This document shows, in pieces, positions 5,365 to 22,800 of a stretch of DNA of 45,792 nucleotides (position 1 is the first letter of the stretch; every line of letters starts with the position of its first letter). The notes beneath the pieces are model-generated. The model saw only the letters and a program-made list of their open reading frames with translations, was not told the DNA's origin and searched no databases. The stretch spans positions 1-45,792 of the IMG/VR virus record IMGVR_UViG_3300037225_000328, one strand, 5' to 3'. The stretch is from a virus (lineage: Duplodnaviria; Heunggongvirae; Uroviricota; Caudoviricetes). Position numbers and translations under genes: made by a program.

Positions 5365-6348
5365 CTATAGTCCCCTCCCCGCCATTGATACATCCGCTAG
5401 TGTCCGTCGATTATGAGGTACTCGCCAGAATTGGGCATAATACCGGGCAAGCCGGGGGCCTAGAATCTGGCGCATGGTGCGCTTTGCGCGCCGCTCATCT
5501 CTGAACATATTGCGGATCCGTGCAAATGTCTTATCCTTGACAAAATCGACAAATCGCAAATGCGCAACAATCCAGTTACAAATCTCCGGACCCCGAAGAG
5601 TCCCCTGATACCCCCGAATCTCAACAGTCTTATGACTCCCCCAAGCCCGCCAATTGATAAACTCGTAGCGGGTCAAATGTCGGGCAAATGTGTCAAAACT
5701 GGCCGCATTAAGCACGGTTTCGGCTTCATAGTCCGGAGGGCGACAAAAGCAATTTCTCAATCGATCAGGATCCACCAGCTTTTGCCACAATTCGATGGTT
5801 AATCGGTAGGCATAAGCAAGATGCCGACGTTGCAAACTAGTAGATTCGCGCAGATCAATGTGAACGTGAAAACCGCACTCATCATCAACCTCAAAGTGGT
5901 TTTGATGGGCAAGTCGGCAGAACTTGCGAATCTCCGCTAATCCCTTGTCCCCTTGGAGAATAGGAGAAATAAACTCTAGCCCGCTAATACTTCCATCCTC
6001 TTTAGCGCCAAAACAAGTGTGCCCGCGTAACCGAATATGATTAGGACAATCGGCAGTTTCTAATTCAACCCCAAAACAGCGCTCACTATGCGTTTTGATG
6101 AACGTATTAGCGGATGAATGAAACTCTGTTTCCCGCCAACGGGAAATAGCAGACCAACAATCATAACAGATAGGTTGCCCGCGATCATTGCGCTGAGTAT
6201 CATCCCGAGAAGCAACGTTCCCGCAATCAGCACAAAGGAAATAGCGGGAACTAAAGCAGCGCTGACAATACACATACCCGCAGGCCCTTTGGCTTGATTC
6301 GGCCGTAACGGGGCACCCACATTGATCGCAATGGCTTCTAGCTGGCAT
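5365..6348 (-). CDS. putative amidoligase with 2 Zn-ribbon repeats (leaderless)
   Basis: FGVELET, KEDGSISGLEFISPIL, CGFHVHID, RYEFIN, TVEIRGYQGTL. Confidence 0.85.
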   Translation of the reverse strand: MPARSHCDQCGCPVTAESSQRACGYVYCQRCFSSRYFLCADCGNVASRDDTQRNDRGQPICYDCWSAISRWRETEFHSSANTFIKTHSERCFGVELETADCPNHIRLRGHTCFGAKEDGSISGLEFISPILQGDKGLAEIRKFCRLAHQNHFEVDDECGFHVHIDLRESTSLQRRHLAYAYRLTIELWQKLVDPDRLRNCFCRPPDYEAETVLNAASFDTFARHLTRYEFINWRAWGSHKTVEIRGYQGTLRGPEICNWIVAHLRFVDFVKDKTFARIRNMFRDERRAKRTMRQILGPRLARYYAQFWRVPHNRRTLADVSMAGRGL

Positions 6349-13937: not shown

Positions 13938-13965
13938 ATTATACCTTATTTCGAGTAAATGTCAA
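13938..13965 (-). promoter_or_regulatory. sigma70-like promoter
   Basis: TTGACA-16nt-TATAAT-6nt-ATG. Confidence 0.88.
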
Positions 13966-14474: not shown

Positions 14475-14476
14475 AG

Positions 14477-14773
14477 TGGAGATGCCGAGAGTCGCACTCG
14501 GGTCTTAATTGCTTCTAGTGGTATATCTACATACATAGTTATTCGTTATTCAACAGCCCAAATAACTCGGCTGATCTATAAATGTACATCAACTGTCAAT
14601 TACTAACGACTTCTGCTACATTGACACTTACAGTTGTCTTGGCAGCTTTACGCAGCCAGTGCTAATTGCGGTTTGGCAATTAAATAATTTAGTCAGCTTT
14701 TAACGTGGCCAACTGACTAACCACGGTATGCAACACTTCCTGTTCACAATTAATCGAAACCTACTTCATCCCC
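14477..14773 (-). ncRNA. ssrA: tmRNA
   Basis: 5' GGGGATG pairs with 3' CATCTCC-A (G3:U70); T-arm CCGAG-TGCGACT-CTCGG; tag ORF 14648-14677 AKPQLALAA-stop. Confidence 0.92.
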
Positions 14774-14783
14774 ATCGTACCTT

Positions 14784-14951
14784 TTACGGTACAACTCGCC
14801 TCAATTCACGAGCCACATACTCATAAACACGCCGGACTTCTGTACCAAGTAGCGTTACCGCAGGTATCGCTACAATCGTAATTAGTGCCAATAGCACTGC
14901 ATACTCGACGGCTGCCGGCCCATCCTCAGAAACAAGAAACTTACGAATCAT
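14784..14951 (-). CDS. flp: Flp/Tad (type IVb/c) pilin, 55 aa (not in ORF track)
   Basis: MIRKFLVSEDG/PAAVEYAVLLALITIVAIPAVTLLG: G-cleavage, E+5 Y+6, hydrophobic helix; AAAGG SD. Confidence 0.85.
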   Translation of the reverse strand: MIRKFLVSEDGPAAVEYAVLLALITIVAIPAVTLLGTEVRRVYEYVARELRRVVP

Positions 14952-16023: not shown

Positions 16024-16379
16024 ATCCTATAAACGGGCACTGGGATAGCAGCGATTGTACCAACCGGCTGACCACCCAGCATCACGGTGACATTGTAAGG
16101 AAGAGACTTGGGCTCTTCGAGAGTAGAGAGATTGAAAAAGCTAATCAGTCGTGTCAACTCTTCCACTCGATTCCAAGTTCGACCAATCCGATAATTCGTA
16201 TCCGGATTGCTCTCTTGGTTCATTAGAATATGAGCGTCCTTCTTTAGGCCATCAACTTCATATTCGAGAATATGCTTAATATCAGAAAAGGCCGGTGGAC
16301 ATTCGACTACAGTACAAATATACTCTTCACCATTGCGGCCGTGAATACATACGTTATACGCGACTACTTGGGTCATCAT
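16020..16379 (-). CDS. hypothetical protein
   Basis: start revised to MMTQVV with GAAGGG SD inside tatA. Confidence 0.65.
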   Translation of the reverse strand: MMTQVVAYNVCIHGRNGEEYICTVVECPPAFSDIKHILEYEVDGLKKDAHILMNQESNPDTNYRIGRTWNRVEELTRLISFFNLSTLEEPKSLPYNVTVMLGGQPVGTIAAIPVPVYRI

Positions 16380-16497
16380 CAATTCCCTTCTTGAATTCAC
16401 GGATTCCTTGCCCTAGACTTCGCATCATATTTGGCAGTCTATTACCGAATAGGAGCAAAGCGACGAAGGCCAGGATAAGAATTTCCGCAAGCTTCAT
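16354..16497 (-). CDS. tatA: twin-arginine translocase subunit TatA/E, 47 aa (not in ORF track)
   Basis: MKLAEILILAFVALLLFGNRLPNMMRSLGQGIREFKKGIDD: TM-FG hinge-amphipathic helix-EFK; own leaderless promoter. Confidence 0.88.
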   Translation of the reverse strand: MKLAEILILAFVALLLFGNRLPNMMRSLGQGIREFKKGIDDDPSSRV

Positions 16498-16503
16498 ATT
16501 ATA

Positions 16504-16531
16504 ACTATACCATGAAAAAAGCCTTTGTCAA
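16504..16531 (-). promoter_or_regulatory. sigma70-like promoter for tatA unit
   Basis: TTGACA-16nt-TATAGT-6nt-ATG. Confidence 0.82.
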
Positions 16532-16888
16532 GGCAACAATTAAAACTATTGTCAGACAGGCAGCATTAAACCAAAAATAATTCGGTTCTTCGGGTTGTAC
16601 TATTATCGGTTCCCACGCCACAGGAGGCACTGGCACCGACGAAGCGGGTGGTGGGAGCGCTGGAGGCATCACGACTGGCGCTAAACCCAGTGCCTCCTGC
16701 CATTCTATCGGGACTAGTTCAGGTCTAATCGCGCCCGATAACCGTCTTATTTCAAATAAAGTTTCTCCAATTGAAGCAATATCGCCGGGAATCTTTGGAC
16801 CCCGACCAAAAACGAAACATTTAGTTTGATCTTTTTGAGAAAAATCTACAGCAATATAATCATTGCCAGACTTGTAATAGTTAGCCAT
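16505..16888 (-). CDS. tail-anchored membrane protein with Pro-rich linker
   Basis: PPALPPPASSVPVPP then C-terminal hydrophobic helix. Confidence 0.65.
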   Translation of the reverse strand: MANYYKSGNDYIAVDFSQKDQTKCFVFGRGPKIPGDIASIGETLFEIRRLSGAIRPELVPIEWQEALGLAPVVMPPALPPPASSVPVPPVAWEPIIVQPEEPNYFWFNAACLTIVLIVALTKAFFMV

Positions 16889-17318
16889 TATAATTACCGC
16901 GTTCGTCAACTACTCCCATTTTTAGATGTCGTCCAAATGCGGGAAGTGTCCGAAACTCTTCTTTTGGAATAGTGATAACTGTAGACCCCTCATGATGGCC
17001 CCGTACATAATCGGCGACCCCGTGAGAAGGATATATCGCTACAGTGGGATGTGACAACGACACCCAACCTTCGGATTCCCCGTCATCATAACCAAGATAC
17101 TCAAACTGTCCATCAACCTTCCGACGAACCGCATAGACATTGGGCTCTAAGACGCGAAGTTGTTGTTTACGTAAGATAAGGGCTTGCTGTAAAGCTGTAA
17201 CCTCATCCCAACTCATCTTACCGATTGCTTTTATCCAATTCACGTATTCGCTCCTTGTATTTGGCGTATAGATTATGTAAATCTTGTTTAGCAGTCGAAA
17301 CTTGAAGTTTGGCATCAT
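16881..17318 (-). CDS. hypothetical protein
   Basis: ORF; true start likely downstream. Confidence 0.55.
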   Translation of the reverse strand: MMPNFKFRLLNKIYIIYTPNTRSEYVNWIKAIGKMSWDEVTALQQALILRKQQLRVLEPNVYAVRRKVDGQFEYLGYDDGESEGWVSLSHPTVAIYPSHGVADYVRGHHEGSTVITIPKEEFRTLPAFGRHLKMGVVDERGNYNG

Positions 17319-17523: not shown

Positions 17524-17995
17524 TTAAAGTGGCAAACTCGCCAAAATATTTTAAAGCCGCTTCATTATATGCTTTTGCTGCATCTATTTTAGTATCAAAG
17601 AATCCTAAAGAAATAAATTTATTATCAACTTGAATTTGAGCCCGCCATTTAGATCCATGTTTAAATTGGGAAACACCTTTATAGCCAGATGTATTATTTT
17701 TATATTTTCTTCGATGAGCAGAATTTTGAGAATCTGTTGCTAACCGTAAATTATCTCTTTGATTATTTAGTCCATTTCTATCTATATGATCTACCTCCCC
17801 TAGAATTCCCATTCTTTCAGCAATAGTTTGATGCATACAAATAGTTTTTCGTGGGGGATTTTTTCTGCTTGTTTTTCGTCTTGCGTAGAATGTAAATCCT
17901 ATTTTAGCAGCATACCACTTCCATTTCATCAAGATATCATAATCTTGGTCATCTAATAGAGCAAACTTGTCTTGTGAGAGTAGTATCTGTTTCAT
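17504..17995 (-). CDS. HNH-AP2 homing endonuclease
   Basis: VDHIDRNGLNNQRDNLR, NTSGYKGV, AAKAYNEAA. Confidence 0.92.
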   Translation of the reverse strand: MKQILLSQDKFALLDDQDYDILMKWKWYAAKIGFTFYARRKTSRKNPPRKTICMHQTIAERMGILGEVDHIDRNGLNNQRDNLRLATDSQNSAHRRKYKNNTSGYKGVSQFKHGSKWRAQIQVDNKFISLGFFDTKIDAAKAYNEAALKYFGEFATLNEIKDE

Positions 17996-18429
17996 CCTGC
18001 ATACCTTTCAGCAGCAGCAAGATCGTTCCATTCGTCAGATTTCTCTTCTTCGTAACTTTTATTCTTCCAATCGACAATATCATTTAATTTAGTTTTAACA
18101 AATTTAAGTCCGTGTTTAGAAACTTCTCGGAGTACCCGGTCTACTATAAAAGTTGCTACAGTTCCTTTATATCGCGCAATTTCCGTTGGACCCCCATCAA
18201 AGATTATATTAATTTCAGTCAACGGGCGAAAACAATCTGCGCTCTTCAACATACTACTAACCGAAGTCTGAAAGGCAGTGCCTCTTAATGTAAAAAAATC
18301 CTGCTCGTATCCACCTAGATTTTTAAGGAGAATACACGCCTGAACAGTATCGAATGTATTAACAAGGGCCATAATTGCAGTAATTAGTGATCGTCGCTTA
18401 TTCTCGGTTTCAATCTCTTGGTGCATCAT
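17992..18429 (-). CDS. hypothetical protein
   Basis: coupled ORF. Confidence 0.65.
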   Translation of the reverse strand: MMHQEIETENKRRSLITAIMALVNTFDTVQACILLKNLGGYEQDFFTLRGTAFQTSVSSMLKSADCFRPLTEINIIFDGGPTEIARYKGTVATFIVDRVLREVSKHGLKFVKTKLNDIVDWKNKSYEEEKSDEWNDLAAAERYAG

Positions 18430-18887: not shown

Positions 18888-19174
18888 ACTTGTTGCTCAT
18901 TCCACGCCATAATTTCGCTACAAAGTTCATTAAACTTCTTTATCGCGGATCCACGTCCCTTGAAAACATAGACAATTCTGGTGTTGAATTTATGCAATCT
19001 CTTGTTGCTATAATGCCCCGCTTCTCTAAGAACTATACGGGCATACATTTCCGGGCCGACAACCCACTTATTATTTTTTGCATGAAAAATGGCCGTTCGC
19101 ATCCCTGTGTTATGGCAACCAAAAAACTCCGGGCCTAGAAATCCTTTTCCAAGGTCCAATTTTGGGATCTTCAT
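18884..19174 (-). CDS. hypothetical protein
   Basis: ATGA-coupled ORF. Confidence 0.6.
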   Translation of the reverse strand: MKIPKLDLGKGFLGPEFFGCHNTGMRTAIFHAKNNKWVVGPEMYARIVLREAGHYSNKRLHKFNTRIVYVFKGRGSAIKKFNELCSEIMAWNEQQV

Positions 19175-19470
19175 GGTGTCACCGGATGGATAATCTCAAT
19201 CTCTTCATATTCATAGCCTTGGTCGCTACGTATATTTAGAAGATTAATAATCGCCCTTATGTCTCCACCCTTTGCCTTGTAGTAAAACATTTCTTGGTCG
19301 CTATCAAGATCGTCAGGATTACCATAATAGCCCCACTCATCCATCACACGAAACAAATGAAGATATGCCTTATCTCGCTCAGCTTCATTACGGGCATAAA
19401 CGGGGTAATCCCCATGCTTTGCTTTAAGAATTAGTACCATCGGCACTCCTGTATAATTCGCGTTCGGCAA
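19171..19470 (-). CDS. hypothetical protein
   Basis: ORF in run. Confidence 0.6.
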   Translation of the reverse strand: MPNANYTGVPMVLILKAKHGDYPVYARNEAERDKAYLHLFRVMDEWGYYGNPDDLDSDQEMFYYKAKGGDIRAIINLLNIRSDQGYEYEEIEIIHPVTP

Positions 19471-21561: not shown

Positions 21562-22279
21562 TTGCTGACTCCCATAGTTCCTTGATATCATTGTAATGTG
21601 GCTCAATATTTGATAGCATTCTCCACGGCACATCTGCTATGTGTGATTTAACAATAAACGTGCCATTTTTTTCTTCATATGATAAATCTTTAGTCCAACA
21701 TTGTCCTATTCCAGCAAGCATTTCGTGCATTGCAGTACGATTCTTTCCTTGCAAATCACAATGCGAAAAGAATTGACGTGTATAAAGACTTAAAGAGTTT
21801 CGTTGCCAATCAGTAGCTCGCCAGAGAAAATAGTTTACTACTTCCTGTTCAGGAATATTAAAGGCTCTAGCATCAAATGCAGCGGGGGATCGACTATAAA
21901 AACCAAAGGCATTTAACATCTTGTTAAAGTGGCCACCAAAAACGGACGCTGATACTGATTCCACTTTTGATTGATTATATCCAAACCAAGCATCAGTTGT
22001 CAAAGTATCATAATCTGTTAGCACAAAGCTTGCTTCGTCACTTTGAATATAGGCCAGCTTGCAACCCTGCATATCATCCGCAAGCGCCCTGGCAGCCATC
22101 ACCATAGACCGCATGATACCGTGGTCAAACGGACTATTACATTGACGAGTGAAAGTGGAAAAGGCACGACCATCAACTCTTATAATTACAGGTATCCGGC
22201 GTGTTAAATAATGTCGTGCCGGATTTTCATAGTTTAACTTTATTCTTTTTGCTAGTTCAGAATGGTCAGGCATCAACAT
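21524..22279 (-). CDS. thg1: tRNA(His) guanylyltransferase / Thg1-like 3'-5' polymerase
   Basis: RVDGRAFSTFT, PFD, YIQSDEASF, FDAR, WRATDWQRNS. Confidence 0.92.
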   Translation of the reverse strand: MLMPDHSELAKRIKLNYENPARHYLTRRIPVIIRVDGRAFSTFTRQCNSPFDHGIMRSMVMAARALADDMQGCKLAYIQSDEASFVLTDYDTLTTDAWFGYNQSKVESVSASVFGGHFNKMLNAFGFYSRSPAAFDARAFNIPEQEVVNYFLWRATDWQRNSLSLYTRQFFSHCDLQGKNRTAMHEMLAGIGQCWTKDLSYEEKNGTFIVKSHIADVPWRMLSNIEPHYNDIKELWESANELCDLSETTTG

Positions 22280-22800
22280 TTACTCCTAATTTGGTCGGCT
22301 GGTACATAGTTAAGGGCTGCTTGTTTTGCGGCTTCAAATGTTGAGTGTTTATCAGGTACAAAAATATGACCTTTATTGCTACATAGATAATAATGCCGAC
22401 CTTCCGGCCACTTAGCAATTGTAATAATTTCATCCTCTAACTTATCTGGCCACGCCAACCTCTCTGACTCAACTGTTGAAAGAATTCTAGTCTCATGGTA
22501 TGGAATAAATCCACCGTTTCTATTAACTAAAATTGTATCGCTGCTTAAATACCTCTGAACACTTAACACCCACTGTTCAGCTAAATAGCGTGGATTATAG
22601 TATGGGTGCCCATTAAAGTGGGGATCAGTACCAAATTTACTATAATACATTGCTGTTACACCCAAATGGAGATCCATTAGGGTTGCAAAATCGCCTGGGC
22701 GTAATTCTAAATACCAACCCGTAAGATTAGGCAATTTAAGATGAGGCTGACAGCGATGAAATCGGTAAATCATTTCAGATGTAGCTTTCGTAGAATCCAA
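22273..22800 (-). CDS. hypothetical protein
   Basis: 175-aa ORF. Confidence 0.7.
   Translation of the reverse strand: MDSTKATSEMIYRFHRCQPHLKLPNLTGWYLELRPGDFATLMDLHLGVTAMYYSKFGTDPHFNGHPYYNPRYLAEQWVLSVQRYLSSDTILVNRNGGFIPYHETRILSTVESERLAWPDKLEDEIITIAKWPEGRHYYLCSNKGHIFVPDKHSTFEAAKQAALNYVPADQIRSKC

Follow-up and report, generated by a model that had tools for sequence, protein, structure and literature searches.

The first 45.8 kb of the 109,792-bp IMG/VR virus record IMGVR_UViG_3300037225_000328 (Caudoviricetes; rated 84% complete), a stretch of 45,792 nucleotides referred to here as the window, encode a 47-amino acid TatA protein that consists of the TatA core and almost nothing beyond it. Within the twin-arginine translocation (Tat) pathway, the sole general export route for folded proteins, TatA is the component that is understood least. 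We favor, with modest confidence, the explanation that this gene is a host-derived, core-only tatA, which would be expressed early in infection to supplement the translocase of the host. The record under study is designated G000 and the other viral records tested are G001–G005.

The gene corresponds to a single open reading frame (ORF), identified by Pfam PF02416, NCBIfam TIGR01411, alignment to solved TatA structures, an AlphaFold2 model and a hydrophobic run:

16354..16497, minus strand: tatA, 47-amino acid TatA/E-family protein

Its ATG, at 16497, is the first in-frame start codon downstream of the preceding stop codon. The initial annotation, made from the letters alone, had read a full TatA core in this ORF and proposed a search with a TatA profile as the check; the Pfam TatA_B_E profile PF02416 matched residues 4–41 at twice its gathering score (42.6 bits against a cut-off of 21, E 3.6e-11), and the TatB model TIGR01410 gave 22.4 bits, far below the TatA scores. 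The AlphaFold2 model, built from 12 sequences with a mean predicted local distance difference test score (pLDDT) of 85, consisted of a helix at residues 3–17, a break at G18-N19, and a second helix at residues 20–40. The first helix carried 12 hydrophobic residues in an unbroken run (I6–F17), the FG hinge was formed by F17-G18, and residues 22–39 were strongly amphipathic (hydrophobic moment of 2.0 per residue and mean hydropathy of −0.64 on the Kyte-Doolittle scale). An acidic patch, D40-D41-D42, directly followed the amphipathic helix and aligned with S44-D45-D46 of E. coli TatA. By HMMER, the protein aligned to residues 7–47 of E. coli TatA (PDB 2LZS, 2LZR, 2MN7 and 2MN6) and to chloroplast TatA (7B7O), the best match among solved structures being the TatA chain of 9E07 (9E07_F). 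The same alignments paired the following residues:

phage E5 with E. coli Q8
phage F17-G18 with E. coli F20-G21
phage G29 with E. coli G33
phage F35 with E. coli F39
phage K37 with E. coli K41
phage D41-D42 with E. coli D45-D46

We take these E. coli positions to be functionally critical, and substitution of F39 presumably gives a dominant-negative TatA; the aligned F35 of the phage protein is retained. A 13–15-residue anchor helix with 12 consecutive hydrophobic residues is described as strictly conserved in TatA and TatB from archaea to plastids (PMC9424591). The negative patch past the amphipathic helix sets TatA apart from TatB. With the Pfam profile, the anchor, the FG hinge followed by an amphipathic helix, and the acidic patch all present, the ORF at 16354–16497 is a genuine member of the TatA/E family.

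Two IMG/VR scans recovered related viral contigs that carry tatA, each of which has other genes in common with the window phage:

L001: 175-kb record, rated complete
L002: 147-kb record, rated complete
L003: 56-kb fragment
L125: 68-kb record
L126: 105-kb record

The TatA proteins of these five contigs are 43–49 amino acids long and extend at most a few residues past the acidic patch, with DE, DD or D-x at the end; the window copy stops 5 residues past its DDD. Measured from the hinge Phe to the C terminus, the window copy spans 31 residues and the six viral copies 25–31, with no overlap with the 35–96 residues (median 59) of the 80 best cellular relatives, which bears out the early impression of a protein with almost no C-terminal tail. 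The corresponding rank test (p = 2e-5) overstates the evidence because the six viral copies are not independent events. L001 was collinear with the window around tatA (deaminase, ORF 19171–19470, tatA, amidoligases), as was L002, where homologs of ORFs 22273–22800 and 16505–16909 precede tatA. Among the tatA genes of the window and L001–L003, codon-position identity was 78–86% at second positions and 25–44%, near saturation, at third positions; tatA has therefore been kept as a protein over a long divergence, under purifying selection. In a tree of 96 TatA cores, L002, L125 and L126 formed a supported group and the TatAs of a second set of phages (L005–L017, below) formed a clade, with little further resolution, so that its 37 columns leave room for either one capture or several in the ancestry of the six phage copies.

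Short TatAs were also present among metagenome proteins: 6 of the best 150 of 2,946 matches (from 1.84 billion representatives) are of at most 50 amino acids, and 2 of these resemble the L001 and L002 copies. The top matches in that set, P0012 (135 amino acids) and P0013 (150 amino acids), are each a tandem fusion of two complete TatA units. A tblastn search of the window TatA against 50,697 deposited phage records gave no match at E ≤ 0.01, which is weak evidence of absence because the low-complexity filter masks the anchor; matches at E ≤ 10 were due to chance, for instance to the antisense strand of mycobacteriophage terminase genes, apart from one marginal 6.8-kb faecal contig. PHROGs v4 likewise contained no match to the window TatA at E ≤ 0.01. 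A family of unassigned function, phrog_29532, weakly matched TatAs over their full length (2.9e-4 for the L002 copy, 0.047 for the window copy, and 0.01–0.05 for the L004 TatA and a Pirellulales TatA), and may represent an unrecognized TatA-like family of reference phages.

The proteins closest to the window TatA in a search of 5.8 billion proteins were TatAs of 53–74 amino acids with 63–88% identity, the single match named to organism coming from a Pirellulales metagenome-assembled genome. The 80 best cellular TatA loci in GTDB (one genome per species) belonged nearly all to Planctomycetota, namely Pirellulales, Planctomycetaceae, Thermoguttaceae and Phycisphaerales, in a scan whose search patterns were built on the LLFGNR motif itself. 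The planctomycete-like affinity first suggested from that motif was thus upheld by both searches. TatC was encoded in all five Planctomycetota genomes with the closest TatAs (G006–G010), with tatC unlinked to tatA. Because the closest TatAs fall in this phylum and the tested genomes of the clade hold TatC, the host is likely a member of Planctomycetota with a TatC-based translocase. Each of the five genomes had 1–3 tatA paralogs, mostly in tandem and far from tatC; in G008, for example, the tatA paralogs are at C1:1751273–1751907 (1.75 Mb) and tatC is at 4.57 Mb.

No tatC (PF00902) was found in the window, as had been noted at the outset, and none was found in the whole of G000 or in G001–G005, three of the six records being rated 100% complete, G001 and G002 among them. 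The element therefore lacks a complete Tat translocase of the TatAC or TatABC type of its own, and the phage TatA works either with host TatC or alone. A strict filter for twin-arginine (RR) signals that barred charge in the hydrophobic h-region missed the cargo of G001 and G002, where Lys follows RRxFL, and a looser filter found both:

L119:5583-6587, minus strand: RR-signal peptidase of G002 (RR filter, alignment and AlphaFold2)
L108:1788-3944, minus strand: RR-signal peptidase of G001 (RR filter, alignment and AlphaFold2)

Both homologous proteins open with M-D-R-R-[DE]-F-L-K and then run into a hydrophobic stretch. When 25 diverse homologs were aligned, R3, R4, C102 (within Q-x-x-G-D-C), H261 and N281-S282-W283 were invariant, and the AlphaFold2 model (pLDDT 87.7) matched xylellain, cathepsins B, L and S, and papain with a probability of 1.00, which identifies the protein, at the level of the model, as a Tat-signal papain-like cysteine peptidase. 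With >380 protein homologs and >320 IMG/VR loci, the family is widespread among phages, and its members may be lysis or envelope enzymes that are exported by Tat. In G002, the peptidase gene is followed by a small membrane-anchored ORF, two thioredoxin-like genes (PF00085), a small ORF with a C-terminal hydrophobic segment, a 160-amino acid ORF, TerL (PF05876) and a 616-amino acid putative portal, the last having no Pfam match and being labeled by its place beside TerL. The order is the same in G001, where the peptidase is split at the catalytic Cys by an intein with a LAGLIDADG homing endonuclease. In both records, the peptidase lies ~60–75 kb from tatA.

The structural module of G001 and G002 was collinear with G000 at 90.7–100 kb, and the putative portal gene matched G000 at 109247–109789 (L211:8860-9792, minus strand), where the record ends inside the gene. 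Neither TerL nor the RR peptidase was found in G000, and in both complete relatives the peptidase lies ~3 kb past the point at which G000 is cut. Since a tailed phage needs a terminase, the missing ~16% of G000 must hold at least the packaging block. The lack of tatC first noted for the window thus extends to the full record, as does the lack of cargo, but the latter is uninformative because the record stops short of the segment that encodes the cargo in the relatives. Contigs of this phage were sought in metagenomes, by exact 44-mer matching and by a protein-guided scan, and none was recovered.

A second association between phage tatA and RR-signal genes came from thirteen more IMG/VR contigs (L005–L017, 13–72 kb; one record rated complete), which encode a different TatA of 58–72 amino acids, taking the likely start, whose amphipathic helix is followed by a conserved acidic helix that contains Cys. 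These proteins form the well-supported clade mentioned above, and tatA is near position 6000 of each locus. Most of them have a canonical RR-signal ORF whose end lies no more than ~100 bp upstream of tatA, and up to 3–4 such ORFs occur per 12 kb; the neighbors belong to several families of small RR-signal proteins, and in six loci tatA directly follows a member of one such family. An RR-signal ORF also begins downstream of tatA in L008, after a gap of 13 bp, and in L003, one of the relatives listed above, after 230 bp. Pfam assigned no family to ten tatA-flanking RR proteins (L003 and L005–L016) or to the G002 peptidase, with one sub-threshold exception, and a PHROGs search with the L003 RR protein and both peptidases returned only a match of unassigned function, to the G001 copy.

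The tatA gene of the window is preceded by a promoter-like sequence, identified by inspection of the sequence and by a pattern scan:

16526..16531, minus strand: −35-like TTGACA, within the last codons of the upstream ORF
16504..16512, minus strand: extended −10-like TGgTATAGT (TATAGT at 16509–16504)

The TTGACA hexamer is followed by a 16-nt spacer ending in TGg, TATAGT, 6 nt, and the ATG at 16497, exactly as first described, and no Shine-Dalgarno-like sequence was seen before the ATG. The pattern TTGACW-N16-TANNNT-N6-ATG occurred 12 times in the window (858–33127), always on the minus, coding strand, against an expectation of 0.02, and none of 100 shuffled sequences reached 12; the tatA promoter therefore belongs to a real, repeated design of this phage. 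The 12 sites usually have G-G or T-G ahead of TAnnnT. A distance of 6 nt from the −10 element to the ATG would place a σ70-type start on the A of the ATG, from which we infer that the tatA mRNA is leaderless, in line with the leaderless promoter proposed in the initial annotation, and the recurrence of the pattern suggests that leaderless early transcripts are widespread in the window phage. The tatA genes of L001 and L002 have ordinary Shine-Dalgarno sites instead, so the leaderless-type tatA promoter is specific to the window phage.

Under the explanation that we favor, the phage lineage would have trimmed a host-derived TatA, closest to those of Planctomycetota, to a short anchor, hinge, amphipathic helix and acidic patch. 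Host RNA polymerase would transcribe the gene early from the stereotyped σ70-like phage promoter, probably as a leaderless mRNA, and the product would insert in the cytoplasmic membrane and join, as additional TatA, the receptor complex built on host TatC; passage of a folded protein requires this subunit in large molar excess. Tat export capacity would in this way be kept or raised during infection, and early expression would load the membrane with TatA before late cargo appears. The likeliest beneficiary would be phage RR cargo, which in the relatives is the papain-like peptidase encoded with thioredoxins near TerL and in the window phage would be encoded in the missing part of the genome; alternatively, host Tat substrates may benefit. 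TatA is needed at ~20-fold excess over TatC and is thought to permeabilize the membrane for the folded substrate (PMC13673990), and this excess, together with the 1–3 tatA paralogs of the host-clade genomes, fits with TatA dosage being limiting. The C-terminal tail of TatA has been reported to be dispensable (PMC13673990; PMC9424591), and the elements reported as essential are all kept. The earlier suggestion that the protein boosts Tat export has gained comparative support from the tail-less TatAs of five relatives, the RR cargo of both complete ones, and the placement of tatA beside RR-signal genes elsewhere; the boost itself is still a deduction from these comparisons.

Several observations weigh against this explanation. 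The NCBIfam tatAE score of the window TatA (TIGR01411, 52.5 bits) fell 1.4 bits short of its cut-off of 53.9. Only 5 residues precede the anchor, giving the protein a shorter N terminus than those of cellular TatAs and of every phage relative. Neither the strict nor the looser filter revealed a convincing RR-signal protein in the 110 kb of G000 on record, and placing such cargo in the missing part extrapolates from synteny. TatA was encoded in just 1 of 19 other peptidase-bearing viral records, and in 0 of the 7 that are at least 90% complete, which indicates that the cargo can use host Tat unaided and that a phage TatA is an optional extra. Conversely, the partial records of L125 and L126 have tatA and no peptidase. 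The host, finally, is a putative one, proposed from the affinity of the phage TatA.

A bolder extension of the favored explanation is that Tat-based exit or envelope attack replaces or joins holin-endolysin lysis. The peptidase would fold in the cytoplasm, where phage thioredoxins would keep it reduced (in one relative after splicing of the intein from the catalytic Cys), and would be exported in the folded state through host TatC, with the phage TatA setting the capacity or the timing of export. We regard this scheme as speculative and somewhat unlikely.

Among the alternatives, the one that survives best dispenses with TatC altogether: a core-only TatA could self-oligomerize and thin or leak the membrane, acting as a holin or pinholin, as a depolarizer that shuts host functions, or as a block to superinfection. 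The short 12-residue anchor has been proposed to thin and destabilize membranes and to leak protons (PMC9424591; PMC13673990), and since such an anchor is itself destabilizing, a holin-like role is possible for this small, membrane-active, holin-like ORF, all the more readily as no TatC was found in the six viral records tested. We nevertheless consider this unlikely, because tatA stands behind an early-type σ70-like promoter among accessory genes and not in a lysis cassette with an endolysin, and no neighbor within ~3 kb matched an endolysin or lysis family. Moreover, all positions that we take to be relevant to transport, and not just the hydrophobic ones, are conserved across the phage copies, and the recurrent location of phage tatA beside RR-signal genes implies recognition by TatC.

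The lack of an RR protein in the 110 kb on record would also be explained if the protein were a working TatA that serves host cargo only (respiratory enzymes that supply energy, for instance, or cell-wall amidases) in a phage with no Tat cargo of its own; the putative transcription unit that tatA shares with other host-derived genes, flp and tmRNA, is consistent with this. The conserved RR cargo of both complete relatives, and the fact that the record is cut exactly before the syntenic block, make this reading doubtful to a greater degree than the preceding one.

The initial annotation had alternatively offered a dominant-negative role, in which the phage protein would mix with host TatA or take TatC sites and block host export, for example of respiratory or envelope enzymes. 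The absent tail, an N terminus shorter than that of every relative, and coexistence with 1–3 host paralogs could be seen in this light. The claim found no support: no inactivating change was detected, the aligned positions including F35 are conserved, the part that was removed is the part reported as non-essential, relatives with normal N termini are tail-less too, and relatives encode RR cargo that needs a working Tat system. We judge interference with host export to be improbable. Least credible, and in our view very improbable, is a neutral passenger, a recently captured host gene fragment without a phage role, as the surrounding HNH endonucleases, tRNAs and other host-like genes might suggest, given that tatA is retained in six related phages as an ORF that is always intact and always truncated at one and the same point past the acidic patch, with saturated third and conserved second codon positions (window and L001–L003) and, in the window phage, a promoter of its own.

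The closest known counterparts of the phage protein are E. coli TatE and B. subtilis TatAc, which are likewise small stand-alone TatA-family proteins without an adjacent tatC and have the same anchor, hinge and amphipathic-helix layout. The phage TatA differs from them in being virus-encoded, with its presumed TatC partner in another genome, in its leaderless-type promoter, and in having 47 amino acids and nearly no tail; characterized cellular TatA and TatE proteins are 57–89 amino acids long. It also resembles the engineered C-terminal truncations of E. coli TatA in ending just after the acidic patch with everything called essential retained. In the truncations of Lee et al. 2002 and Warren et al. 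2009, as cited in PMC13673990 and PMC9424591, the segment through the acidic patch was sufficient. Unlike those constructs, the phage TatA is natural, is kept in six phages, and is N-terminally short as well in its window copy. As in the B. subtilis phoD-tatAd-tatCd operon, both related and unrelated phages encode tatA with dedicated RR cargo; the phage tatA, however, comes without tatC, none of the cargo is on the window record, and the distance that separates cargo from tatA in G001 and G002 precludes a single operon. Finally, phage auxiliary genes are known that supply one subunit of a host machine, such as cyanophage psbA (D1). The phage tatA shares with psbA, and with the Flp pilin gene 1.4 kb downstream, the supply of a single high-demand, host-like subunit that is shorter than the host version, and differs in that its target would be a protein-export machine.

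A full-text search, incomplete in its coverage, found no paper on phage-encoded TatA, the nearest item being a figure label for a TatC Pfam hit in a marine virus (PMC10564846). TatA itself is a textbook family; what is new is a viral carrier without tatC, the systematic reduction of the protein to its experimentally defined core in six related phages, and the association of the lineage with conserved viral Tat cargo. TatAs of 43–49 residues under selection in six phages would mark the minimal natural working unit, in agreement with the E. coli truncation work, and such a protein could be a compact reagent for structural and mechanistic studies. The finding suggests that phages tune the host export machine by supplying a dosage-limited subunit, and some phages would send their own folded enzymes to the envelope via Tat, which would give these enzymes access to the periplasm without a holin. 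Planctomycetota phages are barely known, and the phage TatA offers a concrete, testable lead to host takeover in this group.

The following genes surround tatA in the window:

16505..16909, minus strand: upstream ORF of unassigned function with a hydrophobic C-terminal segment and a homolog upstream of tatA in L002
16020..16379, minus strand: next downstream ORF, of unassigned function, possibly co-transcribed with tatA; its likely ATG (16379 or 16376) lies within the final codons of tatA, behind a AAGAAGGGA stretch
14784..14951, minus strand: Flp/Fap-like pilin ORF in the same putative unit (PF04964, 24.5 bits, below the cut-off of 32.2)
14476..14773, minus strand: transfer-messenger RNA (tmRNA) gene with the tag AKPQLALAA in the same putative unit (ARAGORN)

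The stretch from tatA to the next canonical promoter, at 13965, contained no predicted strong or comparable promoter and no predicted minus-strand terminator. A single transcription unit of the kind first proposed is thus possible, running from tatA through the overlapping ORF, an HNH gene, a zinc-ribbon ORF and the Flp-like ORF to the tmRNA. One further ORF of the window, at 17992–18429 (minus strand, 145 amino acids), was considered as an RR protein and rejected: an acidic stretch precedes its N-terminal KRRSLITAIMALV, the hydrophobic region is short, and we regard this as a weak RR-like motif and not a credible Tat signal. About 2 kb upstream of tatA in G002 (L002:3344-4643) there is a lipoprotein-like ORF that by eye appears SPFH/band-7-like, followed by two small membrane ORFs. 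In the window, a hairpin, GCCTT-GACA-AAGGC followed by TTTTTT, at 16521–16534 (minus strand) overlaps both the −35 hexamer of the tatA promoter and the last codons of the upstream ORF, and could be either a weak terminator ahead of the promoter or a chance occurrence.

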